NCBI GenBank assembly: GCA_963667725.2
Contig: CAXXHO010000005.1
Coordinates: forward strand, 352,001-416,000
DNA length: 64,000 bases
Direction of reading: 5' to 3'
Source: Treponemataceae bacterium
Lineage (GTDB): Bacteria > Spirochaetota > Spirochaetia > Treponematales > Rectinemataceae
Positions within the stretch are counted from its first letter, which is position 1. Every line of letters begins with the position of its first letter. Both the position numbers and the translations under genes were made by a program. The notes below the pieces were generated by a model. That model did no database searches. It had not been told where the DNA came from and saw only the letters and a list, made by a program, of their open reading frames with translations. Positions 45,907 to 63,809 of this stretch are shown here, piece by piece.

Positions 45907-46209
45907 ATGAGAAAGCGGTACGACAAAGAATTCAAGGCCAAAGTAGCCTTGGAAGCCCTGAAGGGCGAAAAGACTTTGCAGGAACTGGCGATTACTTACT
46001 CGGTCCATCCGAACATGATCGCGCTCTGGAAAAGGCAACTTTCGGAGCACGCATCGGCGCTCTTTGAGAAAGAAGGGAAGGATAAAACAACAGAAGACGC
46101 CACGAGGCAAAAGGATGAACTGTACAAACAGATAGGACAGCTCCAAGTGGAGAACGACTACCTTAAAAAAAAATACAAACAACTGTACGGGACCGATCCG
46201 AAATGGTAG
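45907..46209 (+). CDS. IS3 OrfA
   Basis: FKAKVALEAL HTH; A9 slippery run at 46165-46173. Confidence 0.88.
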   Translation: MRKRYDKEFKAKVALEALKGEKTLQELAITYSVHPNMIALWKRQLSEHASALFEKEGKDKTTEDATRQKDELYKQIGQLQVENDYLKKKYKQLYGTDPKW

Positions 46210-47039: not shown

Positions 47040-47603
47040 GAGGAGAAGGTGTCCACCTTATTCCTGATTCTTTTCTGTCTAGACAGGTGGGCTCATTATA
47101 TACGGTGCATTTCTACCGGAATGTGTTCACCAATGTCCCAAGTACCAAAGTGAAAGATGTGGCAGCGATGCTCAAGGCGATCCATGCCCAGGAAGACCGT
47201 CAGGCGGCCCTGGAGAAGGCGCAGGCCGTAGCAGAGAAGCTCAAAGCCATGAAATTGCATACCGCAGCCAAGACTCTTGAAGAGGGTATTCTGGAGACCT
47301 TGAGCTATACTGAATTCCCCCGTGAACATTGGCGAAAACTGAGGACCAACAATCCAATGGAACGGATCATGCGGGAGATCCGTCGTCGTACCCGGGTGGT
47401 TGGCAACTTCCCGGATGGTAATTCTGCGCTTATGCTGGTGACCTCTAGGTTGCGCTACATTGCTGGTCGTCAGTGGGGTACACGGTGCTATATGAATATG
47501 GAACTTTTATTCAAAGGAGAAATCGGCTACCAGATAATCGAGGCATAGACGGGAACTGGATGAGGGCTTCCCGATAAATGTGCGAAAGAATGTTGACGCT
47601 ACC

Positions 47604-47869
47604 TTTTTTAATTTACCAATATTTTCACCCAATTCAAGAAACACCAGATCACTTTCTTTTGATATATACCCTTTATAATAGTATTCGCCATTCTTATTAA
47701 GCTTTACGGAATGGACCCTTCCTTCTTTTAGATATGGTCCAGCAATATCTACACTTAACTTTGATGTATCTACTCCAATAGTATCAATAATCTTCCCGGT
47801 TAACGTAAAATTATTTTTTGAACAACTAGTAATTACTAAGCATATAAGTAATAGAATCCAATTTCTCAT
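47604..47869 (-). pseudogene. Lipoprotein cassette gene, 3'-truncated by IS256
   Basis: MRNWILLLICLVITSC lipobox-like start; the frame runs into the IS256 end. Confidence 0.55.
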
Positions 47870-47915
47870 GTGCTCTCCAAAGCAAAACAAAAATATTTTC
47901 AATGTTTTTCTATAA

Positions 47916-47952
47916 ACCTAACATTGGCTTAACCTTTAAATCCGCGCCTGAG
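47916..47952 (-). repeat. attC half (L'/R'), truncated by IS1634
   Basis: ACCTAACattggcttaacctttaaatccgcgcCTGAG, then IS. Confidence 0.8.
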
Positions 47953-49875
47953 CTGGCGTTGTACAGTGCGCGGTATAGAAAATCTTGCTAATACTCTATA
48001 AATAATAGAGTTATACGATTGCAGTCGAAAATCTTTTATACCGCAACAGGATCTCTTGCTACTGTAGCAAGAACTTTCTTTGGTAATTCAATAGTTAAGC
48101 GCTTGAAAATGTCCTTCGCCTCGTCGGAAATATCAGAGCAATACCAGAGGCTTACATTGTCGCTCTCAATAAGCCCTGCAGTAACATCGGACAGAACTTT
48201 TTCAATCTGGTACCACGACCGGTCCGCCATATTCTCTGCATACCGTACCAGCACCATGGCAAGCCAGCAAATAAGAATATGGCTTCGAATACGATCATCA
48301 AGTCGGTGGTATATGGGACGAATATCCAAGGTGTTTTTCATATCCTTGAATACCCGCTCTATGGCCCAGAGCTGCTTATAGCCGGCAACAATATCGGCAG
48401 CATCCAGCTTCATGCTGGACGTCGACACTAGAAACTTGCCATCAAGGAGTTCCTCTGAGGCTATCTTGGCGGTGTCGAGGTGCAAGACACCCTTCGTATC
48501 CTGCCTAATGTATCTGCCATAGGCGGAATGAGAGCGTAGCGCACACGCCGCTTTCGTGTGTGCTTTCCCCGTATACTGCGACAGTTCATCAAGCTTGCGC
48601 TTCGTAGCATCGACGATTTGTTCGCGTATGACATGGTCGCGCGTTTCGGCTTCCGGATTCTTGACGATGATGAATCGGCGCTCCGTGGCTTTCCCTGCAT
48701 CGAGGACGACATCTTTAATCGCGAGGCCACTTTCCAGGATCCTGAATCGCCCTTTCCGGTGTAGGGCTTCTACCGCGGCGCCATCGGTACCAACGCGGAG
48801 CTTTTCGCCGATGATATAGTCACCGCATTCCCGTAAAAGGATTCTTCTGTTGTCGGCACTATTGAATCCTGCATCTTGGACCATGACGACATGACCAAGA
48901 TTCCACTGTCCTAGATCACCTTTCACCTGCTCGACGATCGTCTGGTCGCTCGTGTTGCCCGGGAATACCCAGCAGCGAATAGGAATGCCGCTACGCGTCA
49001 CCGCAAAGGCAATCGAAACCAACGGTAGCTCGGGGTGTCCATCTTTACTGTGGCCACGTTTTAAAAGCCCTGAACCGGAAGCATCTTCGTCGGTCTCGAA
49101 ATAGGTGTTCGTCGTATCAAGAAAGATAAGATCCACATCAAGGTGGGCATTCTTTGATACTTCGGTAAATATGTGCTTCTGGAGTTCTTCGCTCGACTCC
49201 ACAAGAAGATCCATCGCCCGGTAAAGATTGTGAACATCGACGTTCACAAGATCCCTGATATATGCTTTCTTTGAAACCCAGTGTTCAAGAGAAAGCTTCG
49301 AACCCGGAGCCAGGATCCTGCCTGCAACCATGGCAAAGCAGAGCCGTTCGACGGGTGTGGCGAACTGGCGTTCGTTAAGAAGCCCTTTGATAGCCTTTGC
49401 CATGCCAAGACGATTCCATAGGGCATCTAGAAGCCAGGTGCCCCCAAGCTCCCGACTTGAATGGAAGTCAAATCCGGCGGGGACTTCAGAAGGATATTCG
49501 CCTAAGACCGCAGACAGTGCCTTGATGATCGCCTGGATGTAGGAAGGCTCGATCTGATCTTCCCGTCCGAGCTTCATAAGGACATTGGTTTTGGTCTTTC
49601 CTGTTTCCTTGACGCGGTAGTTGTGCACAAGTTGAAGGTACGTATAGGTACCGCCTTGAGCATTCTTTAGGGTACATTTCCGTACGTTCATTATACCGCT
49701 AATTATACAACATAGTGTTTTATCTGTAAAGTTTTATTTCGAATATTTATAAATATCTTATACCGCATTTGCATCATGCTTTTTGTACAGTCCGTTTTTA
49801 GTTATTTGTTGTCAGTATAATATATTAAGCTGCTTTATTGCTTACTGTATTATACCACACGCTGTACAACGTCAG
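47953..49875 (-). mobile_element. IS1634-family element A, copy 1 (1923 bp)
   Basis: Ends CTGGCGTTGTACAG / CTGTACAACGTCAG; inverted copy of 54028-55950. Confidence 0.88.
48036..49691 (-). CDS. IS1634-family transposase
   Basis: YLQLVHNYR, FLDTT, GHSKD, GNTSD, DAG, IERVFKDMK, RPIYH. Confidence 0.9.
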   Translation of the reverse strand: MNVRKCTLKNAQGGTYTYLQLVHNYRVKETGKTKTNVLMKLGREDQIEPSYIQAIIKALSAVLGEYPSEVPAGFDFHSSRELGGTWLLDALWNRLGMAKAIKGLLNERQFATPVERLCFAMVAGRILAPGSKLSLEHWVSKKAYIRDLVNVDVHNLYRAMDLLVESSEELQKHIFTEVSKNAHLDVDLIFLDTTNTYFETDEDASGSGLLKRGHSKDGHPELPLVSIAFAVTRSGIPIRCWVFPGNTSDQTIVEQVKGDLGQWNLGHVVMVQDAGFNSADNRRILLRECGDYIIGEKLRVGTDGAAVEALHRKGRFRILESGLAIKDVVLDAGKATERRFIIVKNPEAETRDHVIREQIVDATKRKLDELSQYTGKAHTKAACALRSHSAYGRYIRQDTKGVLHLDTAKIASEELLDGKFLVSTSSMKLDAADIVAGYKQLWAIERVFKDMKNTLDIRPIYHRLDDRIRSHILICWLAMVLVRYAENMADRSWYQIEKVLSDVTAGLIESDNVSLWYCSDISDEAKDIFKRLTIELPKKVLATVARDPVAV

Positions 49876-49899
49876 TTAAGGGTCAAGCCAATGTTATGC
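49876..49899 (+). repeat. attC half (L'/R')
   Basis: ttaagGGTCAAGC-caat-GTTATGC. Confidence 0.75.
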
Positions 49900-49932
49900 G
49901 GACGCTTCGCGCAAGTATACTTGAAATTATAC

Positions 49933-49961
49933 TTGACAATAGACGTAAGTAAATGTACTAT
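49933..49961 (+). promoter_or_regulatory. Promoter of TA cassette 1
   Basis: TTGACA-N17-TACTAT. Confidence 0.7.
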
Positions 49962-49982
49962 TCATAGCATAGGAGAATGCTT

Positions 49983-50213
49983 ATGCCGCAAATATCACTC
50001 TATATCGATGAAAAGACCTTGAAGAAGGTAGAAAATGTCGCGAAGCGACAACATACATCAATCTCAAAATGGGTTGCTGAGCAGATTCGATCTCGAGTTG
50101 AACCAGCATATCCTGTAAATTTTGAAGCGCTCTTTGGATCTATTACTGATGATACTTTTGTTGAACCTAAAGAAATATCCTTTAGTTCTGATTTAGCAAG
50201 GGAAGAAATGTAA
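49983..50213 (+). CDS. Antitoxin (RHH/CopG-like)
   Basis: MPQISLYID...SISKWV, translationally coupled to a PIN gene. Confidence 0.75.
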   Translation: MPQISLYIDEKTLKKVENVAKRQHTSISKWVAEQIRSRVEPAYPVNFEALFGSITDDTFVEPKEISFSSDLAREEM

Positions 50214-50611
50214 TGTATTATTTAGACACAAATACATGCATTTACTTTCTAAATGGAAAGTATGAATCTGTAAAGACAAAGATTCTCACAACACTTCCAA
50301 ATGAAATAGCAATTCCATCAATTGTGAAAGCAGAATTACTTCTTGGAGCTTATAAGAGTAAAAACAGAAAAAGTAATATTGAGAAAATTGAAAAGTTTTT
50401 AGAACCATTTGAGATAGTAGCATTTGATGACGTAATGGCTTATACGTATGCAGATATTAGGTATAAAACAGAAAAGATTGGAGAGAATGTTGGGCCTAAC
50501 GATCTTTTTATAGCGGCAATTGTAAAATTTCATGAAGGTACATTGGTAACGAATAATGATAAAGAGTTTAGCAGAATTGAAGGATTGAAAATAGAAAACT
50601 GGGTAAAATAA
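50213..50611 (+). CDS. vapC: VapC PIN toxin
   Basis: YLDTNTC, AEL, GPNDLFIAA, LVTNN..EF.RI.GL. Confidence 0.9.
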   Translation: MYYLDTNTCIYFLNGKYESVKTKILTTLPNEIAIPSIVKAELLLGAYKSKNRKSNIEKIEKFLEPFEIVAFDDVMAYTYADIRYKTEKIGENVGPNDLFIAAIVKFHEGTLVTNNDKEFSRIEGLKIENWVK

Positions 50612-50653
50612 TTTCGCATAACAACCGTTTCAACCTTATAACGCTCTTAGTCA

Positions 50654-52359
50654 CCTGAATTCCCAGTAAATTGTAGCTAGGCGACGACCGGCAATTCAAT
50701 GTTTAAGAGCTCCAAGATTTCTCGCTGTGGCTTTGTTATCTCGGTAAGTATCTGACCATATTTTCCTGCATAACGAATCTTAGTAAGCGGATCCATTTCA
50801 AGCAACAATTCCTGAACTGTATATTTTTCAATGAGTTTTGACTGTCGCATTTCTCTTCGTAAAGCACTTGTAAAAATGAGCGCTATGAATTGTATAAAGA
50901 GCCTGCCGTCGACAGTTTCTATCGTGTGCATACGAAGGCGTTTCATGTCCAGGCTATTCTTCAGATCGTCGAAACATTTCTCCACGATATCTTTGTCACG
51001 ATATACTTGGAGTGCCTCATCGGGATCTTTAAAGCGCGTCGTGAAAATCGCCTGAAACCCCGCATAACGTTTGATATACTGACTTACCGCGTCGTTGTTG
51101 TACGAAACCTTCATCCCCCGCACCGGCGTCGTCGTGATGATAAAAAAGGTCTCGTACTGTTCTTTGTTCTCGGCCTTTGGTTTTCCTGACTCCAGCTCTT
51201 CCTTGTAGGTTATGAGTTCTCTATTAAACCGATCGATTGCATGAGCTCTCATCTGGGCGTTGTAGTAAAGGTGCAGATAACAACGTCGCCGATCTTCTCC
51301 CCAGGGATGGAGCATTGAGTGAACATACAGTACCTCATCGTCGATCATCCTGTAGTGTTCAGGCCCCTGAATCGTATCGTAGATCTCGTCTATGGCTTTC
51401 TGAATCCATAGATTATTCAAAGGAACCGAAAGAGTGAAATGGTCTTTTCGCTCTAAAAGTTCATCAACGTTCTTCTTGCTGTAGAACCCTTTATCAAGCA
51501 CATAGTGCAGATTCTTGATAGCTAGTTTCTTAAAGGTCGCTAGAAGATTGTGTACCGTTTGCACATCAGTGATATTGCCAGGAATCCTGTGATAGTACAC
51601 TGGTAGTTTGCTCTTCTGACCGAAGAGCATGGCCAAATTAAGCTGGGGAAGCTTCTCCTTATCTCTGTTGTGTCCCCAGCGGATGTAGTCATTGAACGCA
51701 CTGTAGGATGAAATGCTCGTGATATCGTAGCAGAGATATTCATCCTCAAGAATTTTATCCATCCAGGATGACAAAAACGATTGCTTTGCTCCTGTCGATA
51801 TGGATCCAAGAATCTCGCTTATCCTCTGGCTTGTAAGTGGCTTTGTTGCTGGATGTTCATGGGTTTTGGTCCACGATTCGCATTGGCTTAAGGGCCCTCC
51901 CTGGCAGGCAAGGTAATAAACCATAGTAAGAATTTGTGCAGAGCATTCAGGGAATGCCGCTTTTAAAAGCCTCGCGACTCCCAGCCGCTTGGATATTTCA
52001 TCGAGAATTAACGAAGGTCCAACGATAGTTGCTGTCGCCGTACCGATAGATTCGTTATCTTGTATAGCACTCTGCGTTATGCGCTTTGATGGAATAAATG
52101 CTCCGGTTGTTGGATCAATTTTGCCAATACAGACTTGCGTACTGCGTGCCTGTTGTTTTTCTTTGTCCCAACGAGATACCGATTCATAGACATACGTCAC
52201 GCCGGTTTTCTTATTGAGATGATGTATACGATAGGGCATTAAGCTGATCCTGCATTCATAGCTGTAATTGTAGCTATGTTTGCTTATTCTGTCAATGCTT
52301 ATTCGCATATATCTAATAGATTTATTCAATCCCTAGCTACAATTTTCCGGGAAATTAGG
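50654..52359 (-). mobile_element. IS1634-family element B (1706 bp)
   Basis: 28-bp imperfect inverted repeats CCTGAATTCCCAGTAAATTGTAGCTAGG / CCTAGCTACAATTTTCCGGGAAATTAGG; 6-bp target duplication TAGTCA. Confidence 0.88.
50677..52239 (-). CDS. IS1634-family transposase B
   Basis: YVYES, YDITS, GNITDV, DKGF, VEKCFDDLK. Confidence 0.88.
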   Translation of the reverse strand: MPYRIHHLNKKTGVTYVYESVSRWDKEKQQARSTQVCIGKIDPTTGAFIPSKRITQSAIQDNESIGTATATIVGPSLILDEISKRLGVARLLKAAFPECSAQILTMVYYLACQGGPLSQCESWTKTHEHPATKPLTSQRISEILGSISTGAKQSFLSSWMDKILEDEYLCYDITSISSYSAFNDYIRWGHNRDKEKLPQLNLAMLFGQKSKLPVYYHRIPGNITDVQTVHNLLATFKKLAIKNLHYVLDKGFYSKKNVDELLERKDHFTLSVPLNNLWIQKAIDEIYDTIQGPEHYRMIDDEVLYVHSMLHPWGEDRRRCYLHLYYNAQMRAHAIDRFNRELITYKEELESGKPKAENKEQYETFFIITTTPVRGMKVSYNNDAVSQYIKRYAGFQAIFTTRFKDPDEALQVYRDKDIVEKCFDDLKNSLDMKRLRMHTIETVDGRLFIQFIALIFTSALRREMRQSKLIEKYTVQELLLEMDPLTKIRYAGKYGQILTEITKPQREILELLNIELPVVA

Positions 52360-52518
52360 TAGTCATGGTTTGTGCAGAACAACAATGCACAAACCACGCC
52401 AATCCCTCGCTTTGCTCGGGAACGAGCGTTAAAGGTTAAGCCAATGTTATGCGGACTCGCGCATTCGCGCGAGCTAAGTTATTATAATAGAAGTATATAA
52501 AAAAGTATAATGTTGTTC

Positions 52519-52547
52519 TTGACATTACACATACTAATGTGTAAATT
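52519..52547 (+). promoter_or_regulatory. Promoter and palindromic operator of TA cassette 2
   Basis: TTGACA-N17-TAAATT overlapping TTACACAT-acta-ATGTGTAA. Confidence 0.7.
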
Positions 52548-52567
52548 ATTGACATAAGGAGGACATT

Positions 52568-52765
52568 ATGGCTACAAACCTCGCTATAGATGATAGATTG
52601 CTCACGAAAGCACTTGAAATTGGCGGTTATAAATCAAAAAAGGACACTGTTAATGCTGCACTTGATGAATTTATCAAAAGAAGAAAAGCAAAAGAGCTAA
52701 TAGATATTTTTGGTACAATAGAATATGACGCTTCTTATGATTACAAGAAAATGAGATCAAGATGA
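52568..52765 (+). CDS. vapB: VapB antitoxin (DUF2191-like)
   Basis: MATNLAIDD.L...K..VN.AL. Confidence 0.82.
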   Translation: MATNLAIDDRLLTKALEIGGYKSKKDTVNAALDEFIKRRKAKELIDIFGTIEYDASYDYKKMRSR

Positions 52766-53175
52766 AACGAGTATTAGTAGATACTTCGGTATGGTCTCTT
52801 GCACTAAGAAAAAAGGAAAGAACTGAGGAAGAACAAAAGATAGTAAGTCATCTATCAAAATTGATAAGTAATCTTACTGTTGTTCTTATAGGTCCAATAC
52901 GACAAGAAATTTTATCAGGAATCTCAACGAAAGAACGATTTGAAGCACTTAAAGAAAGGATATCAATATTTGAAGATCATACGATACATACCCATGATTA
53001 TGAACTTGCTGCAGAATACTTTAATGAGTGTAGAAAGCATGGTATACAAGGATCTCATATAGATTACCTCATATGCTCTGTTGCCTCAAATAATGACATG
53101 TCAATATTTACATTAGATAATGATTTTCAGCTGTATAAAAAGCATATAAGAATAAAGTTAGAGAAATACGCATAA
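52762..53175 (+). CDS. vapC: VapC PIN toxin
   Basis: VLVDTSVW, QEILSG, IDYLI, TLDNDF. The stop codon lies inside the attC R''. Confidence 0.88.
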   Translation: MKRVLVDTSVWSLALRKKERTEEEQKIVSHLSKLISNLTVVLIGPIRQEILSGISTKERFEALKERISIFEDHTIHTHDYELAAEYFNECRKHGIQGSHIDYLICSVASNNDMSIFTLDNDFQLYKKHIRIKLEKYA

Positions 53176-53294
53176 CAAAAGCTTCAACCCTATAACGCCT
53201 TTTGTAATGGTTTTTGCAGAACAACAATGCAAAAACCACGCCAATCCTTCGCTTCGCTCAGGAACAGGCGTTAAGGGTTAAGCCAATGTTAGAT
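53170..53294 (+). repeat. attC site
   Basis: GCATAAC-aaaa-GCTTCAACC...GGTTAAGC-caat-GTTAGAT. Confidence 0.9.
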
Positions 53295-53417
53295 CTATTG
53301 AATAACAAACTCCGAGTAGATTTTGATGCTTTGGTATATAAAATTAGATTCTAATTGTACAATAATAGTAAACAAGTAACAACATGATATGCTTTGTACG
53401 TAAAAAAAGAGTGTAAC

Positions 53418-53924
53418 ATGAAGGCTAAAATACTTACCGTTGTTATTATTTTTGCATTTGTTTTTTCTGTATTTTCGCAAGAACAACAATCTTTAGAAGA
53501 ATACTTCAACAGTGAAATTATAAAAGTTAGTTATCCCTTCGGAAGTGGGGTTTCATTAAATGTTAATGGTACAACATCAACAATTGGTTGGAGGTTGTCT
53601 CCAGTAATTTCTAATATGCTGAATCAGTACCCAACAAGTAAAGTATCATTTGAACAATATAAAAAAGAAAACAGAACTGGAAATGTATTATTATGGAGTG
53701 GCTTAGGTGGGATGATGGCTAGCACTCTGGTGTTTTCATATAAGAATAGTGATGTAACTGGTAATATTAATTTTAGTGATCCAGTAAATGTTGTATCTTT
53801 TTCAGGAATATTTATTGGATCAATAATTGAAGTTGTAGGCGCATTTATTATGAGTTCAGGATATGAAGACTTATTCAATTCAATTAATCAGTACAATTTA
53901 GAAAAGATTAAGGAATATAAATAA
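53418..53924 (+). CDS. Hypothetical exported/membrane cassette protein
   Basis: Signal peptide MKAKIL...VFS-Q and two hydrophobic segments. Confidence 0.7.
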   Translation: MKAKILTVVIIFAFVFSVFSQEQQSLEEYFNSEIIKVSYPFGSGVSLNVNGTTSTIGWRLSPVISNMLNQYPTSKVSFEQYKKENRTGNVLLWSGLGGMMASTLVFSYKNSDVTGNINFSDPVNVVSFSGIFIGSIIEVVGAFIMSSGYEDLFNSINQYNLEKIKEYK

Positions 53925-53935
53925 AGCATATTAAG

Positions 53936-54027
53936 ATCTAACATCTGCTTCGACCCTATAACGCCCTTTGTCATGGTTTGTGCAGAACAACAATGCACAA
54001 ACCACGCCAATTCTTCGCTTCGCTCAG
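53936..54027 (+). repeat. attC 5' part, truncated by IS1634 copy 2
   Basis: ATCTAAC-atct-GCTTCGACC...cgCTCAG, then IS. Confidence 0.85.
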
Positions 54028-55950
54028 CTGACGTTGTACAGCGTGTGGTATAATACAGTAAGCAATAAAGCAGCTTAATATATTATACTGACAACAAATA
54101 ACTAAAAACGGACTGTACAAAAAGCATGATGCAAATGCGGTATAAGATATTTATAAATATTCGAAATAAAACTTTACAGATAAAACACTATGTTGTATAA
54201 TTAGCGGTATAATGAACGTACGGAAATGTACCCTAAAGAATGCTCAAGGCGGTACCTATACGTACCTTCAACTTGTGCACAACTACCGCGTCAAGGAAAC
54301 AGGAAAGACCAAAACCAATGTCCTTATGAAGCTCGGACGGGAAGATCAGATCGAGCCTTCCTACATCCAGGCGATCATCAAGGCACTGTCTGCGGTCTTA
54401 GGCGAATATCCTTCTGAAGTCCCCGCCGGATTTGACTTCCATTCAAGTCGGGAGCTTGGGGGCACCTGGCTTCTAGATGCCCTATGGAATCGTCTTGGCA
54501 TGGCAAAGGCTATCAAAGGGCTTCTTAACGAACGCCAGTTCGCCACACCCGTCGAACGGCTCTGCTTTGCCATGGTTGCAGGCAGGATCCTGGCTCCGGG
54601 TTCGAAGCTTTCTCTTGAACACTGGGTTTCAAAGAAAGCATATATCAGGGATCTTGTGAACGTCGATGTTCACAATCTTTACCGGGCGATGGATCTTCTT
54701 GTGGAGTCGAGCGAAGAACTCCAGAAGCACATATTTACCGAAGTATCAAAGAATGCCCACCTTGATGTGGATCTTATCTTTCTTGATACGACGAACACCT
54801 ATTTCGAGACCGACGAAGATGCTTCCGGTTCAGGGCTTTTAAAACGTGGCCACAGTAAAGATGGACACCCCGAGCTACCGTTGGTTTCGATTGCCTTTGC
54901 GGTGACGCGTAGCGGCATTCCTATTCGCTGCTGGGTATTCCCGGGCAACACGAGCGACCAGACGATCGTCGAGCAGGTGAAAGGTGATCTAGGACAGTGG
55001 AATCTTGGTCATGTCGTCATGGTCCAAGATGCAGGATTCAATAGTGCCGACAACAGAAGAATCCTTTTACGGGAATGCGGTGACTATATCATCGGCGAAA
55101 AGCTCCGCGTTGGTACCGATGGCGCCGCGGTAGAAGCCCTACACCGGAAAGGGCGATTCAGGATCCTGGAAAGTGGCCTCGCGATTAAAGATGTCGTCCT
55201 CGATGCAGGGAAAGCCACGGAGCGCCGATTCATCATCGTCAAGAATCCGGAAGCCGAAACGCGCGACCATGTCATACGCGAACAAATCGTCGATGCTACG
55301 AAGCGCAAGCTTGATGAACTGTCGCAGTATACGGGGAAAGCACACACGAAAGCGGCGTGTGCGCTACGCTCTCATTCCGCCTATGGCAGATACATTAGGC
55401 AGGATACGAAGGGTGTCTTGCACCTCGACACCGCCAAGATAGCCTCAGAGGAACTCCTTGATGGCAAGTTTCTAGTGTCGACGTCCAGCATGAAGCTGGA
55501 TGCTGCCGATATTGTTGCCGGCTATAAGCAGCTCTGGGCCATAGAGCGGGTATTCAAGGATATGAAAAACACCTTGGATATTCGTCCCATATACCACCGA
55601 CTTGATGATCGTATTCGAAGCCATATTCTTATTTGCTGGCTTGCCATGGTGCTGGTACGGTATGCAGAGAATATGGCGGACCGGTCGTGGTACCAGATTG
55701 AAAAAGTTCTGTCCGATGTTACTGCAGGGCTTATTGAGAGCGACAATGTAAGCCTCTGGTATTGCTCTGATATTTCCGACGAGGCGAAGGACATTTTCAA
55801 GCGCTTAACTATTGAATTACCAAAGAAAGTTCTTGCTACAGTAGCAAGAGATCCTGTTGCGGTATAAAAGATTTTCGACTGCAATCGTATAACTCTATTA
55901 TTTATAGAGTATTAGCAAGATTTTCTATACCGCGCACTGTACAACGCCAG
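54028..55950 (+). mobile_element. IS1634-family element A, copy 2 (1923 bp)
   Basis: Same ends as copy 1 and an identical translated protein. Confidence 0.88.
54212..55867 (+). CDS. IS1634-family transposase
   Basis: Identical 551 aa protein to 48036-49691. Confidence 0.9.
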   Translation: MNVRKCTLKNAQGGTYTYLQLVHNYRVKETGKTKTNVLMKLGREDQIEPSYIQAIIKALSAVLGEYPSEVPAGFDFHSSRELGGTWLLDALWNRLGMAKAIKGLLNERQFATPVERLCFAMVAGRILAPGSKLSLEHWVSKKAYIRDLVNVDVHNLYRAMDLLVESSEELQKHIFTEVSKNAHLDVDLIFLDTTNTYFETDEDASGSGLLKRGHSKDGHPELPLVSIAFAVTRSGIPIRCWVFPGNTSDQTIVEQVKGDLGQWNLGHVVMVQDAGFNSADNRRILLRECGDYIIGEKLRVGTDGAAVEALHRKGRFRILESGLAIKDVVLDAGKATERRFIIVKNPEAETRDHVIREQIVDATKRKLDELSQYTGKAHTKAACALRSHSAYGRYIRQDTKGVLHLDTAKIASEELLDGKFLVSTSSMKLDAADIVAGYKQLWAIERVFKDMKNTLDIRPIYHRLDDRIRSHILICWLAMVLVRYAENMADRSWYQIEKVLSDVTAGLIESDNVSLWYCSDISDEAKDIFKRLTIELPKKVLATVARDPVAV

Positions 55951-55991: not shown

Positions 55992-56043
55992 AAACTCCAA
56001 TACCTTTTCATATTTTCATTACATTAGGGCGCCGAAGGCGTCT

Positions 56044-56159
56044 ACCTAACATTGGCTTAACCTTTAAATCCGTGCCCGAAGGGCTTAGCGTGGTTTGTGC
56101 ATTGTTGTTCTTGCACAAACCATGACAAAGGATTTATAAGGTTGAAGCAGTTGTTCGAT
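56044..56159 (-). repeat. attC site
   Basis: Minus strand ATCGAAC...GTTAGGT. Confidence 0.9.
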
Positions 56160-56164
56160 GCTTC

Positions 56165-56503
56165 TTATCTTATTATTACTTCTATTTTTTCTATTACTTC
56201 TTCCATTTTTTTGTCTCCAATTTTTTCTATAAATTCTATATTTCTTTCTCTCCAATCTAAACTCTTTATCTGATCACTTAATACAGAGCCTTTTATCTTT
56301 TTTAACTCTAACTCAACTTCAAATGGATATCCCTTTACCTTACTTGTAATTGGGCAAAATAATGCTAATCCAATTTTCTCATTATATGCTTTAAATGATA
56401 ATGTGAGTGCTGGTCTTCTTCCCCTTTGTTCATGGCCCAATTGTGGGTTGAAGTCCAACCAAACAATGTCTCCTCTCTCAGGAATATAGCTTTTACTTAC
56501 CAT
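56165..56503 (-). CDS. mazF: MazF/PemK endoribonuclease toxin
   Basis: PERGDIVWLDFNPQLGHEQRGRRPA, CPITS, DQIKSLDW. Confidence 0.92.
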   Translation of the reverse strand: MVSKSYIPERGDIVWLDFNPQLGHEQRGRRPALTLSFKAYNEKIGLALFCPITSKVKGYPFEVELELKKIKGSVLSDQIKSLDWRERNIEFIEKIGDKKMEEVIEKIEVIIR

Positions 56504-56730
56504 TCTTCTTTTCCTATTGAAGATCCAGTATCAACAAAGGCATGCAGATTTTCTTCTTTTACTTGAGAAAGAAGTGATTCAAGCGTCGTTTTCTTTGGAA
56601 GAATAACAAGCTTTCCACCATCTTCCAATATTTCTACTGAGCTTCCACCCTTAAGATCAAATTCTTTCACATACAGCGAAGGAATACGTATACCAAGGCT
56701 ATTACCCCATTTTTGAACAACTGTTTTCAT
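56497..56730 (-). CDS. mazE: MazE/AbrB antitoxin
   Basis: KWGNSLGIRIP. Own promoter TTGACA (56777-56772), N17, TATACT. Confidence 0.9.
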   Translation of the reverse strand: MKTVVQKWGNSLGIRIPSLYVKEFDLKGGSSVEILEDGGKLVILPKKTTLESLLSQVKEENLHAFVDTGSSIGKEEW

Positions 56731-56816
56731 AAGAACCTCCACAATAATAGTATACACATTGTATATCTATTTGTCAAGTATACATTGTATATACTATTTG
56801 GGCGCCGAAGGCGTCC

Positions 56817-56931
56817 ATCGAACATTCGTTTAACCTTTAAATCCGTGCCCGAAGGGCTTGGCGCGTTTTGTGCATTGTTGTTCTGCACAAAACGTGCCAA
56901 AGGATTTATAAGGTTGAAACGGTTGTTCGAT
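56817..56931 (-). repeat. attC site
   Basis: Minus strand ATCGAAC...GTTCGAT. Confidence 0.9.
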
Positions 56932-56989
56932 GTCTTCTTTTTGTTATATTTAAATAATTAATATTTATAATTATCTATCACCCTTCAAT

Positions 56990-57412
56990 TTACTTATTTC
57001 TTATTGCAATTGGATGATCTTTATTCAGCTGTAAAAGGTCCCACAAGTTTCCATAAAGATCTTCAAATACAGCTACCATTCCATAATCTGCTTTTTTAGG
57101 CTCTCTAATAAACTTAATTCCCTCTTTTATCATATTTTTATAATCTCTCCAAAAATCATCGGTATTAAGAAATAAAAACACTCTTCCACCGGTTTGATTT
57201 CCAATAAATGGTTCTTGTTCTGACTTAGATGCTTTAGCAAGTAATATGGTAGTTCCAGAACCTCCAGGAGGAGCAATAACTACCCATCGTTTATTCTGTT
57301 CAGGCTGATATGTGTCTTCAATGAGAACAAAATTTAGTTTCTTTATATAGAAATTAAGTGCCTCATCATAATCTTTTACAACGAGTGCTATATGTACAAT
57401 TGATTGTTTCAT
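56990..57412 (-). CDS. VOC/glyoxalase family protein
   Basis: HIALVV.DYDEA, GNQTGGRV, FEDLYGNLWDL. Confidence 0.88.
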   Translation of the reverse strand: MKQSIVHIALVVKDYDEALNFYIKKLNFVLIEDTYQPEQNKRWVVIAPPGGSGTTILLAKASKSEQEPFIGNQTGGRVFLFLNTDDFWRDYKNMIKEGIKFIREPKKADYGMVAVFEDLYGNLWDLLQLNKDHPIAIRNK

Positions 57413-57496
57413 AGTCCACCAATGTTAAATGTAAATATCAATAGCTTCTACAAATAGAACGTATGCATTTTTAAATTTTTTGCGCCGAAGGCGTCC

Positions 57497-57623
57497 ATCG
57501 AACATTCGTTTAACCTTTAAACCACATTCCTGAGCGAAGCGAGGGATTGGCACGTGTTTTTGCATGAGATTTCATGCAAAAACCGTGACAACGTGGTTTA
57601 TAAGGTTGAAACGGTTGTTATAA
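57497..57623 (-). repeat. attC site of the recombinase cassette
   Basis: Minus strand TTATAAC...GTTCGAT. Confidence 0.9.
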
Positions 57624-57686
57624 GTCTTCCTTTCTATACTATGTATCGTATAATCACAATATTTCTGCATTTTAAAAGGAATAAAT

Positions 57687-58571
57687 ATGGGCACACTAAA
57701 AAACAAAATGGTAGACAATATGATCGCTCATGGATATTCAGATAAAACAATAAAACTGTATACTTGTTGTGTTAAATGCTTTTCTTATCATTATATGAAG
57801 TCTCCTCTTAAAATTACTTATCAAGAAATTGAGTCCTTTTTCCTCTACTTAAGAAAACAGAAAAAAAGTGAATCAACAATACATATTTACTACGAAGCAT
57901 TAAAATTCTTCTATTCAATGTACAATCTAAAAGAACGAATTCCATACTTCAATTTTTCTCATTGTAATAATAGACTACCGGAAGTCCTATGCCAAAATGA
58001 AGTTTTTCAACTCTTGGAACAATGTAATAGCTTAAAGTATCGTACTATTTTGACACTGATCTACTCTGCTGGCCTACGCGTCTCAGAAGCCGCAAAACTC
58101 AAGCTGTCAGATATCGATTTTAACCGAAAGCAAATATTCGTACGAAATGGAAAGAATAAGAAAGATCGGTATACTCTACTTGCTAATGAAACCATCCTGA
58201 TCTTAAAGCAATATATGCAAATATATAATCCCGTAGATTATGTTTTTTATACTAATGATATAGCAAAAAGCATATCTACAGACTGTATCCAACAATACTT
58301 TAAGAAGTTACTATCACAGTGTAATATAAGTAAGACTATTCATGTGCATACTTTACGCCATTGTTTTGCAACCCATTTACTAGAAAATGGAACAAGCATT
58401 TTTTATATCATGCATTTACTTGGTCATTCCAATATTCAGACTACAATGATATATCTTCATATGCGGTCTTTAGAAAACCTGAATATTGTATCTCCCATGG
58501 ATAATCATCATTTTGACCCGACGAAAACACCTACAATAGTAGGTCATCAGATGCTTCTACAATCGGCTTAA
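57687..58571 (+). CDS. Tyrosine recombinase, IntI-related, without the IntI-specific insertion
   Basis: N-terminal SAM-like domain (GYSDKTIKLY); complete R-K-HxxR-H-Y set (GLRVSE, GKNKKDR, HTLRH, LGHS, TMIY); C-terminal SPMD. Confidence 0.9.
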   Translation: MGTLKNKMVDNMIAHGYSDKTIKLYTCCVKCFSYHYMKSPLKITYQEIESFFLYLRKQKKSESTIHIYYEALKFFYSMYNLKERIPYFNFSHCNNRLPEVLCQNEVFQLLEQCNSLKYRTILTLIYSAGLRVSEAAKLKLSDIDFNRKQIFVRNGKNKKDRYTLLANETILILKQYMQIYNPVDYVFYTNDIAKSISTDCIQQYFKKLLSQCNISKTIHVHTLRHCFATHLLENGTSIFYIMHLLGHSNIQTTMIYLHMRSLENLNIVSPMDNHHFDPTKTPTIVGHQMLLQSA

Positions 58572-58590
58572 CATTCTGCCCGAAGGGTCC

Positions 58591-58714
58591 TTATAACATT
58601 GGCTTAACCCTTAACGCCTGTTCCTGAGCGAAGCGAAGGATTGGCGTGGTTTGTGCATTGTTGTTCTGCACAAACCATGACAAAGGATTTACAAGGTTGA
58701 AGCACGTGTTAGAA
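58591..58714 (-). repeat. attC site (chimeric arms)
   Basis: Minus strand TTCTAAC...GTTATAA. Confidence 0.88.
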
Positions 58715-58777
58715 TTCTTCATTTCTAATATAATATGTTCATTATTTCTATACTAATTATCATTTTATATGTTTTTA

Positions 58778-59119
58778 TCATCCCCAAAAACAACAATATT
58801 TATCATCTTCTACTGTCTTTATAAAGGCATTCAATGTTTTTACTTCTTCTTTTGGCTCATACGAGTGCCATTTTGAGTCTGCTCTCATCCAATATATCTT
58901 CCATATATTTTCTTTATGGATATATGTAGTCTTTGCAATAGGAGACTCAACTTTTTTCTTACTCATAATTTCTCTAATTTCAAATATTATTATACTTTGC
59001 CGTTCAATTTTATAACTAATATCTATTTTATTTCGAATATCTTCTTTTGGACGTATTTTTTCAATATAATCTTCAATTATTTTTGAGTATTTCTTTATCT
59101 CTTCTTCTGTAAATGCCAT
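58778..59119 (-). CDS. DUF3024 family protein
   Basis: PIAK..Y....WKIYWMRAD.KWH.YEP...CFWG. Confidence 0.82.
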   Translation of the reverse strand: MAFTEEEIKKYSKIIEDYIEKIRPKEDIRNKIDISYKIERQSIIIFEIREIMSKKKVESPIAKTTYIHKENIWKIYWMRADSKWHSYEPKEEVKTLNAFIKTVEDDKYCCFWG

Positions 59120-59222
59120 TGTATCCTCTTAATATGATTAAATTTATTTCTTTAGATTTTAATTACATTTTTATTACTAATATAATCTCAACTTTTAATT
59201 TACTCTTGCGCCGAAGGCGTCA

Positions 59223-59344
59223 TCCTAACATTGGCTTAACCGGTAATTCCGTGCCCGAAGGGCTTGGCGCGGTTTGTGCATAAAGAGCGAAGCGATTGCA
59301 TAAACCGTGACAAAGGAATTATCCGGTTGAAGCAGTTGTTAGCC
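59223..59344 (-). repeat. attC site
   Basis: Minus strand GGCTAAC...GTTAGGA. Confidence 0.88.
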
Positions 59345-60301
59345 ATTTCTTTTTGTATATTTTGTCATCCGTCCATTACCAGTCGTTTCCAATACTCCAT
59401 CTAGTATTAGCTGTTTCAAATCTCTGCTTGCTGTTGCTGTCGATATCCCTTTATTTACTTTTATATACTCTTTCCTATCAAACCATCCAACTAATATAGA
59501 AAGTGCATAATCAGCTCTCTTTTTATAGTCAATATTTGGTATCTTTGTGCCTTCTATAGTCTTTCTTAGGCTCTCATTAATCACTTCAAGCATAAATTCT
59601 ATAAATTGTGTCGACTTTCCCTCATTATCAGAATCCTCTAATACTTTATAATATTTTTCTTGATTATTTCTAATAGTCTCTTCTATTGGAATGTATTCAA
59701 AAATGGGATTCGCATCCATAAGTAATCTGGTTTGCCAAAACCTACCCATTCTTCCATTTCCATCTTCGAATGGATGGATAAATTCCATCTCATAATGAAA
59801 GACGCAACTTTTTATTATATCAAGATCATTATCTTTCTTAATATAATCAAACAAATCTTTCATCAGCCCAGGAACCATACTATACCCTGGTGCAATATGC
59901 TGTACTTCTTTTCCCTTAATAATCCCAACTTGTTTTTGTCGAAATTTCCCAGGATTATCTACTAATCCTTCCATCAAGATTCCATGAGCTCGTAAAAAAT
60001 CGTTCATTGAGTAAGCTTTTAATTGATTTAATTGATCATATGCCCTAATTGCATTTTGTACCTCAAGTATATCTTTTTTAGGACCTACAACATGCACTTT
60101 ATCAATGATTGCAGTGACATGTTCAATATCTAATGTATTTCCTTCTATTGCCAATGAAGAATGAATAGTTTTTATTCTATTTTGTCTTCTTAACTTAGCT
60201 TCTGGTTTAACCAATAGAAGACTTTTACATTGCCCTAAAGCCTCACTTATCTGTCCATATAGAAAGAGGATTCTATTTGTTATCGCATATGGCGGTTTCA
60301 T
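59339..60301 (-). CDS. Fic family protein
   Basis: SLAIEGN, HPFEDGNGRMGR, C-terminal HTH. The stop codon lies inside R''. Confidence 0.9.
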   Translation of the reverse strand: MKPPYAITNRILFLYGQISEALGQCKSLLLVKPEAKLRRQNRIKTIHSSLAIEGNTLDIEHVTAIIDKVHVVGPKKDILEVQNAIRAYDQLNQLKAYSMNDFLRAHGILMEGLVDNPGKFRQKQVGIIKGKEVQHIAPGYSMVPGLMKDLFDYIKKDNDLDIIKSCVFHYEMEFIHPFEDGNGRMGRFWQTRLLMDANPIFEYIPIEETIRNNQEKYYKVLEDSDNEGKSTQFIEFMLEVINESLRKTIEGTKIPNIDYKKRADYALSILVGWFDRKEYIKVNKGISTATASRDLKQLILDGVLETTGNGRMTKYTKRNG

Positions 60302-60348
60302 ATCACCTCTATGATAGCATCATTTGATACTATCTGCAAGCTAAATAT

Positions 60349-60473
60349 GGCTAACATTGGCTTAACCCTTAACGCCTGTTCCTGAGCGAAGCGAAGGATT
60401 GGCGTGGTTTTTGCGTCATCTTCTCGCAAAAACCATGACAAAAGGCGTTATAGGGTTGAAGCGTTTGTTAGAT
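60349..60473 (-). repeat. attC site
   Basis: Minus strand ATCTAAC...GTTAGCC. Confidence 0.9.
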
Positions 60474-60474
60474 T

Positions 60475-61287
60475 TCAGCACTTTCCATTTTGAGCTATAT
60501 ATAACAAATGTTCTGCGCAACCTATGCAATGGGGATCCTCTATAAACTCCATGGCTAAAGTAATACATTCAGAAATCACTTCTTTAGGATACTTCTTTAA
60601 AACTTCTTCATAGGGACCAAGTATGCTCTCAACAGCATAACATCCAATTTTCTTAATCGGAAAAGAACTCATCAATTCTTCGACTTCTTCTATCCTTGAG
60701 AAGTAAGCTGCTGTAAAGCCATCATCACTCACAATATTAGTACCATTACTAAAGTATCCTAACAATGTATTAATGTTTCCAATAACCTTATCTGGATATT
60801 TCTTTAATATGTCAATAATAGGTGCATATGCAGATATGAATGTAGAAGCTATTATTCCATTAGGTTTTAATACCCTTAATGCATTTTCTATGACTTTTTC
60901 TCTATCAGCTTTGTCTGTAAGGTGATAAAGAGGTCCCATGATAAGGACTGCATCATGCTCATTTTCATTAAGATTATTAAGATCAAGAGCATTTCCTACA
61001 ACAAACGAATCTATATGCTCATCGTTATGTATATCATTTTCTCGTGCAAACGCAATATTTTCTTCTGAAAGATCAAATAGCGTGACAGAATACCCTAATC
61101 TTGCTAACCAAAACGAATAATGTCCTGGGCCACCACCTAGATCCAATATTTTTGCTGGTGGTTTTGGTAGATGCTTTAGCAGTAAACGTTTTGTTATTTC
61201 AAATTCTACTGGATGCCTTTCTGCACGCGTCCATTCATGTTCAACCTGTCTATTGTAAAATATTTTTACGATATCGCTATCATGCAT
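60475..61287 (-). CDS. Class I SAM-dependent methyltransferase
   Basis: ILDLGGGPG, MGPLYHL, LKPNG. Start MHDSD follows GGAG. Confidence 0.85.
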   Translation of the reverse strand: MHDSDIVKIFYNRQVEHEWTRAERHPVEFEITKRLLLKHLPKPPAKILDLGGGPGHYSFWLARLGYSVTLFDLSEENIAFARENDIHNDEHIDSFVVGNALDLNNLNENEHDAVLIMGPLYHLTDKADREKVIENALRVLKPNGIIASTFISAYAPIIDILKKYPDKVIGNINTLLGYFSNGTNIVSDDGFTAAYFSRIEEVEELMSSFPIKKIGCYAVESILGPYEEVLKKYPKEVISECITLAMEFIEDPHCIGCAEHLLYIAQNGKC

Positions 61288-61311
61288 TACTATCTCCGAT
61301 ACATTCTGTAA

Positions 61312-61436
61312 ATCTAACATTGGCTTAACCCTTAACGCCTGCTCCTGAGCGTAGCGAAGGATTGGCGTGGTTTTTGCGTCATCTTCTCGCAAAAACCATG
61401 ACAAAAGGCGTTATAGGGTTGAAGCATTTGTTAGAA
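61312..61436 (-). repeat. attC site
   Basis: Minus strand TTCTAAC...GTTAGAT. Confidence 0.9.
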
Positions 61437-61853
61437 ATCTTCTTTTATAAATGGATTGAGTAATTTAATTCCTCTATAATTTTGTCCAGAATTTAAATCT
61501 TCTGATAGAACATATTCACAATTTGCCTTTTCAGCTGCAGCAATTATTAATGAATCCCAAAATGATAGTTGTGATAAAATACTAATATCAATTGCTTGCT
61601 CTATCAAATCTAAATCATTATTTACTATTTCCATATTATGAAAATTATGAATAATATTTTTTACAACTATCGGATCAGCTTTTAATTTATTTGATGCCAC
61701 AACATAAAACTCTTTTATTACTTGAGTAGAAATAGCAGGCTGATGCGATTCTACTACCTTCTTAACTATCTTTCGTGCCATATCCCGTTTATCAATATCC
61801 TTTTGATCTAATGTGTACACTAGGATATTTGTATCTATGAATATTTTAGACAC
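61431..61853 (-). CDS. vapC: PIN-domain toxin
   Basis: FIDTNILVY, STQVIKEF, SFWDSLI, SEDL. Confidence 0.88.
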   Translation of the reverse strand: MSKIFIDTNILVYTLDQKDIDKRDMARKIVKKVVESHQPAISTQVIKEFYVVASNKLKADPIVVKNIIHNFHNMEIVNNDLDLIEQAIDISILSQLSFWDSLIIAAAEKANCEYVLSEDLNSGQNYRGIKLLNPFIKEDF

Positions 61854-62070
61854 GATAAAGTTCCTCTCTTGTCCACGTCACATTCTCTGAAGATACTTGA
61901 AGCTTATCCATTAAAGAAAAGGTATCATCAAGCCATTGATCTTTTGTAGAGAGGACAGTTTGTTCAACCAATCTTCTAACAAGGACATTGAATGATACAT
62001 TATGCTTACGCGCATAATCCCTTCCAGCCTTGAGTACTTTTTCATCCATCGAAAGAGTAATATTCTTCAT
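61846..62070 (-). CDS. Antitoxin (DUF6364/RHH-like)
   Basis: MKNITLS.D...WTREELY. Promoter TTGACA (62115-62110), N17, TATACT. Confidence 0.78.
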   Translation of the reverse strand: MKNITLSMDEKVLKAGRDYARKHNVSFNVLVRRLVEQTVLSTKDQWLDDTFSLMDKLQVSSENVTWTREELYRV

Positions 62071-62194
62071 ACCTTACCTCATACACAGTATATGTGCACA
62101 CTATGTAATTGTCAAGTCTACAACATACTGTAATTGATGTTGAACTATTTCTTTATACCAGTGAATATTATTATCTTCCTGCGCGGGAGCGTCT

Positions 62195-62319
62195 TTCTAA
62201 CATTGGCTTGACCCTTAACGCCCGCTCCTGAGCGAAGCGAAGGATTGGCGTGGTTTGTGCATGGGATTTCTGCACAAACCATGACAAAGGGCGTTATAGG
62301 GTCGAAGCAGGTGTTAGGC
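62195..62319 (-). repeat. attC site
   Basis: Minus strand GCCTAAC...GTTAGAA. Confidence 0.9.
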
Positions 62320-62324
62320 GAAAA

Positions 62325-62903
62325 TTAGTATAACATTCCTTTGTAATTATTCTTTATGGCTTCAATAATTTTCTCTTCTCTTTTCCTTCGTGTCTCTTCA
62401 GTTTTTGCTTCACAATAGAATCCCGCTAGTTGCTTCTGCCTAGAAGGTGAAATGTTTTCCAATAGCTTCAATATATCATTTTTCATACTCAAAATATCTT
62501 TTAGCTTTTTAATATTGGCAGCGTTTATACTATTCTTATCTACTACATCCTTTTTCTTATCGTCAATTTGATATGCTTCTATTCCAAATTGTGTAATTAA
62601 CCCTTTATCCTTAAGTTCTTTATAGATTGCTTTATTCTTTTCAGACCACTTCTTTTTATCAATCCTTCTTGAAAAGTACTTTTTATACTTTGTTTCATCT
62701 ATTGACTTCATAAGCCCATCAATCCAACCAAAACAGATTGCTTCTTCCAAAGCATCGTTTGAAGTAAAAACTTTATTTCCTTTTGTAAAAACAATCCAAA
62801 TACCATTTGAGGAACCATGGTTGATTTCAAGCCATATCCTAAATGCTTTTCTATTTTCGAATTGAAGAATTGAATTACCATTATTCATCATAATTATCAC
62901 CAA
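62325..62903 (-). CDS. YdeI/OmpD-associated family protein; start uncertain
   Basis: EEAICFGWIDG, WSEKNK, AKTEETR. Confidence 0.82.
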   Translation of the reverse strand: MVIIMMNNGNSILQFENRKAFRIWLEINHGSSNGIWIVFTKGNKVFTSNDALEEAICFGWIDGLMKSIDETKYKKYFSRRIDKKKWSEKNKAIYKELKDKGLITQFGIEAYQIDDKKKDVVDKNSINAANIKKLKDILSMKNDILKLLENISPSRQKQLAGFYCEAKTEETRRKREEKIIEAIKNNYKGMLY

Positions 62904-62939
62904 ACTTAAATATTTCTAATTTGCGCGCGAAGCGCGTCC

Positions 62940-63073
62940 GCCTAACATTGGCTTAACCCTTAACACCTGTTCCTGAGCGAAGCGAAGGATTGGCATGGTT
63001 TTTGCCTAAAGGAGCGTAGCGACTCGCAAAAACCATGACAAAAGGCGTTATAGGGTTGAAGCATTTGTTAGGC
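62940..63073 (-). repeat. attC site
   Basis: Minus strand GCCTAAC...GTTAGGC. Confidence 0.9.
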
Positions 63074-63165
63074 ATCTTCTTTATTTCCATTCTCTATAGT
63101 TACATACATTATTTTTCAATATGATACTTTATAGTTTTTTGTTAACCATATAATGTATTTCTAAT

Positions 63166-63579
63166 CTAAATATCATCTTCATCTATTACTTTTATTCCAT
63201 TCTTTAATAATAATTCTGCAGTTATTCCATTTCCTTCTTTCAATGTTCCAGTGAAAGTACCATCATAAATTTCACCTTTACCACATGATGGAGATCTTGC
63301 CTTTAGAATAGCTCTATTACATTTATAAATACGTGCAAGTTCAAGTGTAATCTCAGCCCCTTTCACAAACTCAACGGTTACATCTCTTCCGTCTTTATTT
63401 ATTACTCTTCCATTGATTATCTCTGCAGGTGGCCTTGGTGTCTGTAATCCGCCCAATTGTTCAGGACATACAAATAGTGCTTCTCCATCTTTTATGAGCT
63501 GCTTTATGTCTTTATTAAGCTTACTTTCTCCATTGTATCTACAAGGAACACCAGCTAAACATGCACTAACTAGAATCAT
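63166..63579 (-). CDS. DUF523 / TudS 2-thiouracil desulfurase family protein
   Basis: VSACLAG..CRY, CPEQLGGL.TPR, LKARSPSCG. Confidence 0.88.
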   Translation of the reverse strand: MILVSACLAGVPCRYNGESKLNKDIKQLIKDGEALFVCPEQLGGLQTPRPPAEIINGRVINKDGRDVTVEFVKGAEITLELARIYKCNRAILKARSPSCGKGEIYDGTFTGTLKEGNGITAELLLKNGIKVIDEDDI

Positions 63580-63647
63580 ATTTATCTCCTATTCTGGAAG
63601 ATAATTTATGTTTTCAATTTGTTTTTGCTCGCGCTTTGCGCGAGTCT

Positions 63648-63772
63648 GCCTAACATTGGCTTGACCCTTAACGCCCGTTCCTGAGCGTAGCGAAGGATTG
63701 GCGTGGTTTGTGCATTGTTGTTCTGCACAAACCATGACAAAGGGCGTTATAGAGTCGAAGCAGGTGTTAGGT
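63648..63772 (-). repeat. attC site
   Basis: Minus strand ACCTAAC...GTTAGGC. Confidence 0.9.
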
Positions 63773-63809
63773 TTCTTTGCTTTTTCTTAATATTAATTAC
63801 AATATTTCA

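Follow-up and report, generated by a model that had tools for sequence, protein, structure and literature searches.

Why should a gene cassette of an integron carry a tyrosine recombinase, and does such an enzyme move the cassette in which it lies? The question is raised by a locus in a 64,000-nt stretch of a Treponemataceae genome of the Spirochaetota (NCBI GenBank assembly GCA_963667725.2, here G000), namely positions 352001-416000 of contig CAXXHO010000005.1 (G000:C5:352001-416000), the whole of which is called the window below. Within a long array of attC recombination sites, one cassette of the window holds a tyrosine recombinase (YR) gene. A first-pass annotation, made from the sequence alone, had taken the YR for an enzyme related to the integron integrase IntI but deprived of the IntI insertion, and had suggested that this may be a non-canonical integron system without attI, in which the integrase is itself a cassette. 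We find that the same antisense YR cassette is a recurrent, conserved family present in many arrays. We consider it probable (about 0.72) that the unit is an ordinary integron cassette, which carries the YR as cargo and is moved by the IntI of the array.

The recombinase cassette and its host array

The attC sites were modelled with a covariance model (R1) built from 11 aligned attCs of the window. Two R1 matches bound the unit, and its features are as follows (window coordinates).

57503-58596, minus strand: recombinase cassette, 1,094 bp from crossover to crossover (C5:409503-410596 on the contig)
57495-57625, minus strand: own attC of the recombinase cassette (R1, 125.9 bits, E = 1.5e-33)
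57623-57617, minus strand: R'' box TTATAAC of the own attC, read from the sequence
57503-57497, minus strand: R' box GTTCGAT (G^TTCGAT) of the own attC, complementary by alignment to R'' ATCGAAC of the next cassette
58589-58716, minus strand: attC of the preceding cassette (R1, 136.5 bits; alignment)
58597-58591, minus strand: R' box GTTATAA (G^TTATAA) of the preceding attC, supplying the crossover that opens the recombinase cassette
57626-57686, plus strand: 61-nt leader from the own attC to the start codon, putative promoter region of the recombinase gene
57635-57640 and 57649-57654, plus strand: −10-like boxes TATACT and TATAAT in the leader, read from the sequence
57676-57680, plus strand: ribosome-binding site (RBS) AAGGA in the leader, read from the sequence
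57687-58571, plus strand: YR gene (294 aa), antisense to the array and the only long open reading frame (ORF) of the unit
58578-58589, no strand assigned: GC mini-hairpin GCCCGAAGGGTC at the 5' end of the cassette in array orientation, just past the YR stop codon

In array orientation the cassette is made up of 25 nt that include the small GC hairpin, the antisense YR gene, the 61-nt leader and the attC. It is bounded by attCs, its R'' and R' boxes are complementary at both junctions, its attC folds with bulged bases and its breakpoint lies at G^TT, all of which define an integron cassette. Folded as single-stranded DNA, the plus strand of the own attC forms an imperfect hairpin of -35.6 kcal/mol (z = -8.9; 0 of 200 shuffled sequences folded as well), with a bulged T and a bulged G in its 3' arm. 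The description of the unit as an excisable type of cassette in mid-array, with its boxes where they had been placed, is thereby confirmed. Bulged T and G bases in the 3' arm mark the bottom strand, as in the attC of aadA7. Because they sit in the 3' arm of the plus strand, this is the bottom strand and the array reads on the minus strand, on which the remaining cassette ORFs of the array also lie. What the unit lacks is a promoterless gene in sense orientation, a trait that is usual for cassettes but not defining.

Being antisense, the YR gene cannot use the array promoter, and its leader suggests that it has a promoter of its own within these 61 nt. The boxes TATACT and TATAAT and the AAGGA motif, pointed out in the first-pass annotation, are indeed present, but no full promoter was found upstream of the gene in a scan for the sigma-70 consensus. 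AT-rich −10-like boxes and an RBS occupy the equivalent place in other cassette loci. In two close copies (L011 and L042), TATACT is kept and the −10-like boxes as a set are only partly kept. The mini-hairpin, also singled out at first as a feature shared by the cassettes, is real: a GC stem directly follows R' in 165 of the 241 cassettes of the genome, as against 80 of 2000 random 23-mers of the array. Its position past the crossover makes it a part of the next cassette. Its consensus is GAC-GCC-TTCG-GGC-GC, with examples in the window at 58578-58589, 57483-57494 and 56803-56814, and it also adjoins the homologous cassette in L011 and L042.

Comparison with metagenomic loci shows the cassette moving as a unit. 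The window and L043 are 94.6% identical over 57501-58600; the AAC/GTT core is the exact point at which the similarity sets in, with unrelated sequences beyond. Neighbouring cassettes differ in L042, L043 and L045. The neighbour in L042 is a copy of an insertion sequence (IS) of the IS30 family, and the IS30 of the window is 94.5% identical to the one beside the YR cassette in L042 and L011; L045 has as its neighbour a cassette found 7 kb away in the window.

The host array occupies the window from about 44.8 kb to its end, at 33-47% GC versus 53-63% in the backbone. At a threshold of at least 70 bits, R1 matches 15 sites in the window, 10 on the minus strand (56042-63774) and 5 on the plus strand (44811-54055). 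Along the whole contig, a nucleotide hidden Markov model detects 168 attCs (396813-550001), 163 of them on the minus strand and the last 877 nt from an IntI gene; by R1 the minus-strand attCs extend from C5:408042 to C5:550003 (150 of the candidates scored). The array thus measures about 153 kb with at least 168 attCs, and the YR cassette lies about 140 kb in from its head, near the far end. At the head stands a canonical IntI gene (C5:550880-551806), whose product scores 446.9 bits over positions 7-315 of the family model TIGR02249 (cut-off 265). It lies on the same strand as the cassettes and is transcribed towards them, which is the layout given for the Treponema type in the available text of PMC3607928. 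Two more IntIs above the cut-off head arrays at C1:34408-35331 and C7:37069-37989. The reading as an integron without intI and attI is not supported, with a canonical IntI heading the same array about 140 kb away and two more in the genome. According to the first-pass annotation, the YR would be passive cargo if a canonical intI/attI existed elsewhere in the array and the YR had no activity on these attCs; of these two conditions, the first has its counterpart in the canonical IntI found at the array head.

The cassette resembles those of sedentary chromosomal integrons of the Treponema type in its R''/L''/L'/R' boxes, bulged bases and G^TT crossover, in holding one gene, in the uniform attCs within its array and in the head integrase encoded on the cassette strand. 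Unlike them, it holds an antisense gene that needs its own promoter, its cargo is a recombinase, and this cargo recurs across attC types.

The recombinase and its relatives

The YR combines the domains PF00589 (133 bits) and PF13495 (52 bits). Residues R131, H221, R224, H247 and Y256 are invariant across 32 homologs, in agreement with the initial view that the only gene of the unit, antisense to the array, encodes a catalytically complete recombinase. The SPMD tail regarded at first as IntI-like is present but is not specific to IntI, as no member of the YR clade departs from S269, P270 and D272. An IntI model was expected to give no hit; TIGR02249 does score below its cut-off (175.5 bits versus 265), but it still matches the YR in two stretches. 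The best family score is that of the XerA model NF040815 (211.2 bits), just below its cut-off of 220.

The reported lack of the IntI insertion is borne out. About 15 YR residues stand where TIGR02249 has about 56 positions (~181-236), and in the alignment with the IntI of its own genome (29% identity) the insertion of IntI falls in a gap. An AlphaFold (AF2) model of the YR, based on the 32 homologs (mean predicted local distance difference test score, pLDDT, 78.4), is helix-free at residues 181-197. By sequence and fold alike, the closest solved structures are XerA (5hxy) and then IntI (2a3v).

A quick maximum-likelihood tree of 71 rows, from which 17 near-duplicate rows had been removed beforehand and in which IntI was represented by the three proteins of G000, places the YR in a 47-row clade with a support of 99 (Shimodaira-Hasegawa-like approximate likelihood ratio test, SH-aLRT). 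The sisters of this clade are recombinases associated with IS91 elements, and the three G000 IntIs form a separate clade (support 100). The rows flanked by attC are scattered across all major subclades of a 40-row core. Because the YR and IntI clades are separate in the tree, the YR is, on the evidence of these sequences, a cousin of IntI and not an IntI derivative that lacks its insertion.

These affinities can be set out by family. With IntI (TIGR02249, 2a3v) the YR shares the pairing of PF13495 and PF00589, the catalytic residues, the SPxD tail and about 29% identity to the IntI of the genome. It differs in having no inserted helix, in scoring below the family cut-off, in grouping outside the IntI clade and in its position in mid-array rather than at the array head beside attI. 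With archaeal XerA (NF040815; 5hxy, 4a8e) it shares its top family score and its top structure match, in sequence and in fold. Unlike archaeal XerA, it scores under the cut-off of 220, comes from a bacterial host, is borne on a cassette and has no dif context. A database search with the YR gave 7,815 hits; among the best 120 homologs, lengths range from 217 to 353 aa and 118 have both domains.

Recombinases of this general kind have been met near attC sites before. The available text of Cury et al. 2016 (PMC4889954) counts 50 proteins near attCs that have PF00589 but not the IntI-specific domain, and concludes that they are not IntI; for 29 of the 50, the genome has an IntI at another place in the replicon. 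The YR locus would fall in this class, which that text does not describe further. A recurrent family of antisense recombinase cassettes is not mentioned in the available portions of PMC4889954, PMC3607928, PMC9176274 and the preprint 10.64898/2026.03.17.712381. Our literature search retrieved no description of a cassette-borne recombinase family, or of an integron in genomes like those of the family f20 considered below, and searches on IS91 accessory recombinases and on Leptospira integrons likewise retrieved no such cassette family.

Recurrence across genomes and metagenomes

A metagenome scan with the alignment of 32 homologs recovered 79 loci with 95-32% identity to the YR. A scan of genome contigs with the single protein, whose peptide patterns proved overly specific, had yielded L011 alone. 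Flanking attCs were sought with R1 and two further covariance models: R2, a rebuilt version based on 81 hits, and R3, which covers a second type of attC and was built from 21 of its sites. A match was counted when it lay up to 120 nt upstream of the protein match or up to 170 nt downstream of it. These models replaced two hairpin scanners, the first of which missed known attCs and the second of which was specific but insensitive. The loci divide as follows.

Loci with at least 47% identity (n = 57): attC on both sides, 18; on one side, 20; none, 19
Loci below 47% identity (n = 22): attC on both sides, 0; on one side, 0; none, 22

An attC thus stands directly beside the gene in 38 of the 57 closer loci. 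This supports the expectation that homologs would be recurrently flanked by attC, with both sides occupied in only 18 of the 57; the contig ends before the second flank in 11 of the 20 one-sided loci. At every match the attC lies on the strand opposite to the YR gene, and the matches on the other strand are weaker mirrors of the same sites. The distance from the end of the attC to the YR start codon is 39-85 nt, and the next attC follows 13-99 nt after the match or stop codon. At least two modelled attC types carry the YR cassette, in addition to two further repeat types. One locus without a modelled attC (L094) is flanked by a third hairpin type of 156 nt, truncated attC arms were recognised by eye at four others (L044, L050, L080 and L086), and attC remnants are visible at the genome locus L014 in comparison with close cassette-borne relatives. 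The YR ORF is intact and its catalytic residues are invariant over the range of 47-95% identity, a single broken copy having been seen (L089).

A homolog with 72% identity to the YR occurs in G317, which belongs to the same order; it lies antisense between two attCs (89.8 and 74.1 bits), about 87 kb from the canonical IntI of that genome. L011 holds a 94% identical copy with an attC 60 nt upstream of its start. Within the metagenomic array of L061, two diverged copies of the YR gene (257-1087 and 2522-3346) share 73% nucleotide identity. The same antisense YR cassette is, in sum, a conserved family that recurs in many arrays.

Eight genomes of the order have homologs with 43-49% identity (L015, L016 and L127-L132) at which R2 and R3 detected no attC, and neither inverted nor direct repeats were found in L051, L052, L057, L066-L068 and L076. 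The neighbours there look cassette-like, including small genes for GNAT, methyltransferase, DinB and PIN proteins, frequently on the opposite strand. The distant homologs L104-L119 showed no repeat arrays.

Among 301 sampled genomes of the order, which are related and not independent, the YR clade (E <= 1e-60) occurs in 11 and IntI in 103, with both in 8 of the 11. Near-identical words of the sequence were also found in 20 sequencing runs from 13 studies of freshwater, landfill, wastewater, hydrocarbon and groundwater environments, and in one run (X8) a 983-nt contig spans 57636-58614 with 24 differences and ends in attCs. These occurrences may track the host organism and are not counted as evidence of transfer. 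Joints from attC to attC in metagenome contigs were considered as circles or excision products and were rejected as repeat artefacts.

Homologs also reach into another family of the same phylum (f20), in which 21 of 75 genomes hold a clade member with 39-45% identity to the YR. IntI was above the cut-off in 0 of the 5 f20 genomes tested. One f20 genome, G369, has a large array:

C2:218238-306233, ORFs on the minus strand: array of ~95 attC-like repeats of 157-180 nt (repeats to ~304500; loci L121-L126)
L124:17196-18233, minus strand: head recombinase (345 aa), at the high end of the array and on the same strand as the cassettes

The repeats have the spacing of cassettes, and their complementarity is correct at the three junctions read. 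The head recombinase matches the IntI model with 182.8 bits in two stretches and has no insertion. It is 30% identical to a G000 IntI (residues 12-345 versus 9-410), with an N-terminal extension in common. The three IntI matches of G000 lie in open frames of 431-480 aa, as compared with the 315 positions of the family model, and their N-terminal part is shared with the G369 enzyme. Three cassettes of the YR clade lie inside the G369 array, and the copy examined is antisense and flanked by repeats. Judged from its sequence, the array looks like an integron run by an insertion-less enzyme. No attC was detectable at the other f20 clade loci (L017-L036, minus those of G369) and at several loci of the order. 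In L017, L020 and L024 of f20, a conserved, GC-rich structured element (…GGGATACGAAGGGCTTGGTC…GGAGTAGCCCGACCC…) lies downstream of the YR stop codon.

Two 100% identical IS1634-family copies stand in inverted orientation (window 47953-49880 and 54023-55950), and attC fragments abut their ends (47895-47939, 49868-49903 and 53934-54022). The attCs between the copies (52323-54055), together with one at 44811-44936, oppose the main direction of the array. This arrangement suggests insertion of each copy into an attC and an inversion of the segment through recombination of the two copies. Crowded at the far end of the array are transposase genes, one of the IS30 family (43651-44631) and one of the Mutator family, the latter split by an inserted IS3-type (rve) gene (45011-45817, 46203-47039 and 47036-47548). 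At window 36478-43404, small minus-strand genes of low GC content (35-44%) include methyltransferases, a GNAT, a DUF488 protein and a weak aminoglycoside nucleotidyltransferase-like match. The region has no attC match, and it may consist of decayed old cassettes past the end of the array.

Which enzyme moves the cassette

On the reading that we prefer, the cassette would be cut and pasted at its G^TT points, most likely by the head IntI, and the antisense YR would be expressed from its own leader promoter. According to the available part of PMC7790495, integron integrases went from double-strand to single-strand recombination by gaining the I2 alpha-helix. As the YR has no inserted helix of this kind, classical recombination of short duplex sites is its most probable mode of action, and it would not be the recombinase that runs this array.

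Several observations weigh against this reading or reduce its evidence. Some loci are near-duplicates (for example L046-L048, L059/L060 and L061-L063), so that independent lineages are fewer than the count of 38 among 57 implies. The negative result of the sigma-70 scan bears on the supposed self-expression of the gene. Three of the 11 YR-bearing genomes are drafts without an IntI match: G461 (95% complete), G512 (79%) and G484 (87%). Since the head recombinase of G369 has no insertion, an enzyme may be able to act on attC-like sites even without one. The antisense layout is conserved and, with an attC 39-85 nt before the start codon, resembles that of an int gene with its attachment site; by this analogy the YR could use its own attC.

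The strongest alternative builds on the same observations. The YR would be a second, helix-less kind of attC recombinase that excises, re-inserts and spreads its own cassette without IntI, making the unit a minimal integrative element with attC as its attachment site, which perhaps stirs integrase-less attC clusters too. This would account for the int-att type of layout, kept in all cassette loci examined, and for the long time over which the cassette has been tied to arrays, whose sites comprise at least two modelled types of attC and two other types of repeat. The presence of two diverged copies in the L061 array and three in that of G369, the array of approximately 95 sites in G369, in which the cassette logic is correct and an insertion-less recombinase stands at the head, and the three genomes without an IntI match can be read in the same way. 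However, the helix that the YR lacks is the one tied to single-strand recombination in the available part of PMC7790495, and the canonical IntI present in G000, G317, G305, G110 and G288 suffices to explain breakpoints at G^TT. Shared attC flanks, and a shared orientation through common descent, would be expected of any cassette family that has persisted for long. Moreover, the clade members of f20 outside G369 and several loci of the order persist without a detectable attC. We therefore regard self-mobilisation as unlikely, although it deserves to be kept in view.

Another reading concerns the origin of the gene. At some time in the past an IS91-type element, with the YR as its accessory recombinase, might have been captured as a cassette, leaving the YR stranded without a role. 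The best annotated plasmid matches (38-43% identity), named 'site-specific tyrosine recombinase/integron integrase', lie directly upstream of IS91 family transposases, and IS91 transposases also follow 6 of the 22 metagenome loci below 47% identity, where the homologs are 32-36% identical (tblastn with two IS91 transposase queries). These IS91-linked enzymes are the nearest annotated relatives and the sister group of the YR clade and have the same length and domains. With the same two queries, however, an IS91 transposase was found beside 0 of the 57 loci with at least 47% identity, and the YR clade has an N-terminus (MG.L...M) and a C-terminal ...SA end of its own. None was found in G000 either, in a search whose control matched nowhere. 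A remnant also fits poorly with the intact ORF and the invariant catalytic residues kept down to 47% identity, with L089 as the one broken copy, and with a cassette that has no spare DNA between its 25 nt, gene, 61 nt and attC. We consider a functionless remnant quite improbable.

Hardly credible, finally, is a nested platform in which the YR and its attC head a second, insertion-less integron with the downstream cassettes as its array: in array orientation, the order of leftward gene, promoter region, recombination site and cassettes is that of a classical platform, but the cassette ends match, the unit moves beside differing neighbours and the downstream attCs do not differ in family from the other 160 or so in the array headed by IntI.

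Cassettes are usually seen as the passive cargo of one enzyme, and here the cargo is a close cousin of that enzyme. At the least, with the YR as ordinary cargo, the standing repertoire of large chromosomal integrons comes to include a recombinase that is probably self-expressed, and the finding offers an explanation for the class of non-IntI recombinases noted beside attCs in 2016. If the YR did act on attC, cassettes could move independently of the stress-controlled integrase, and the finding would bear on the origin of IntI from Xer-like ancestors, a question that the insertion-less head recombinase of G369 makes directly testable.

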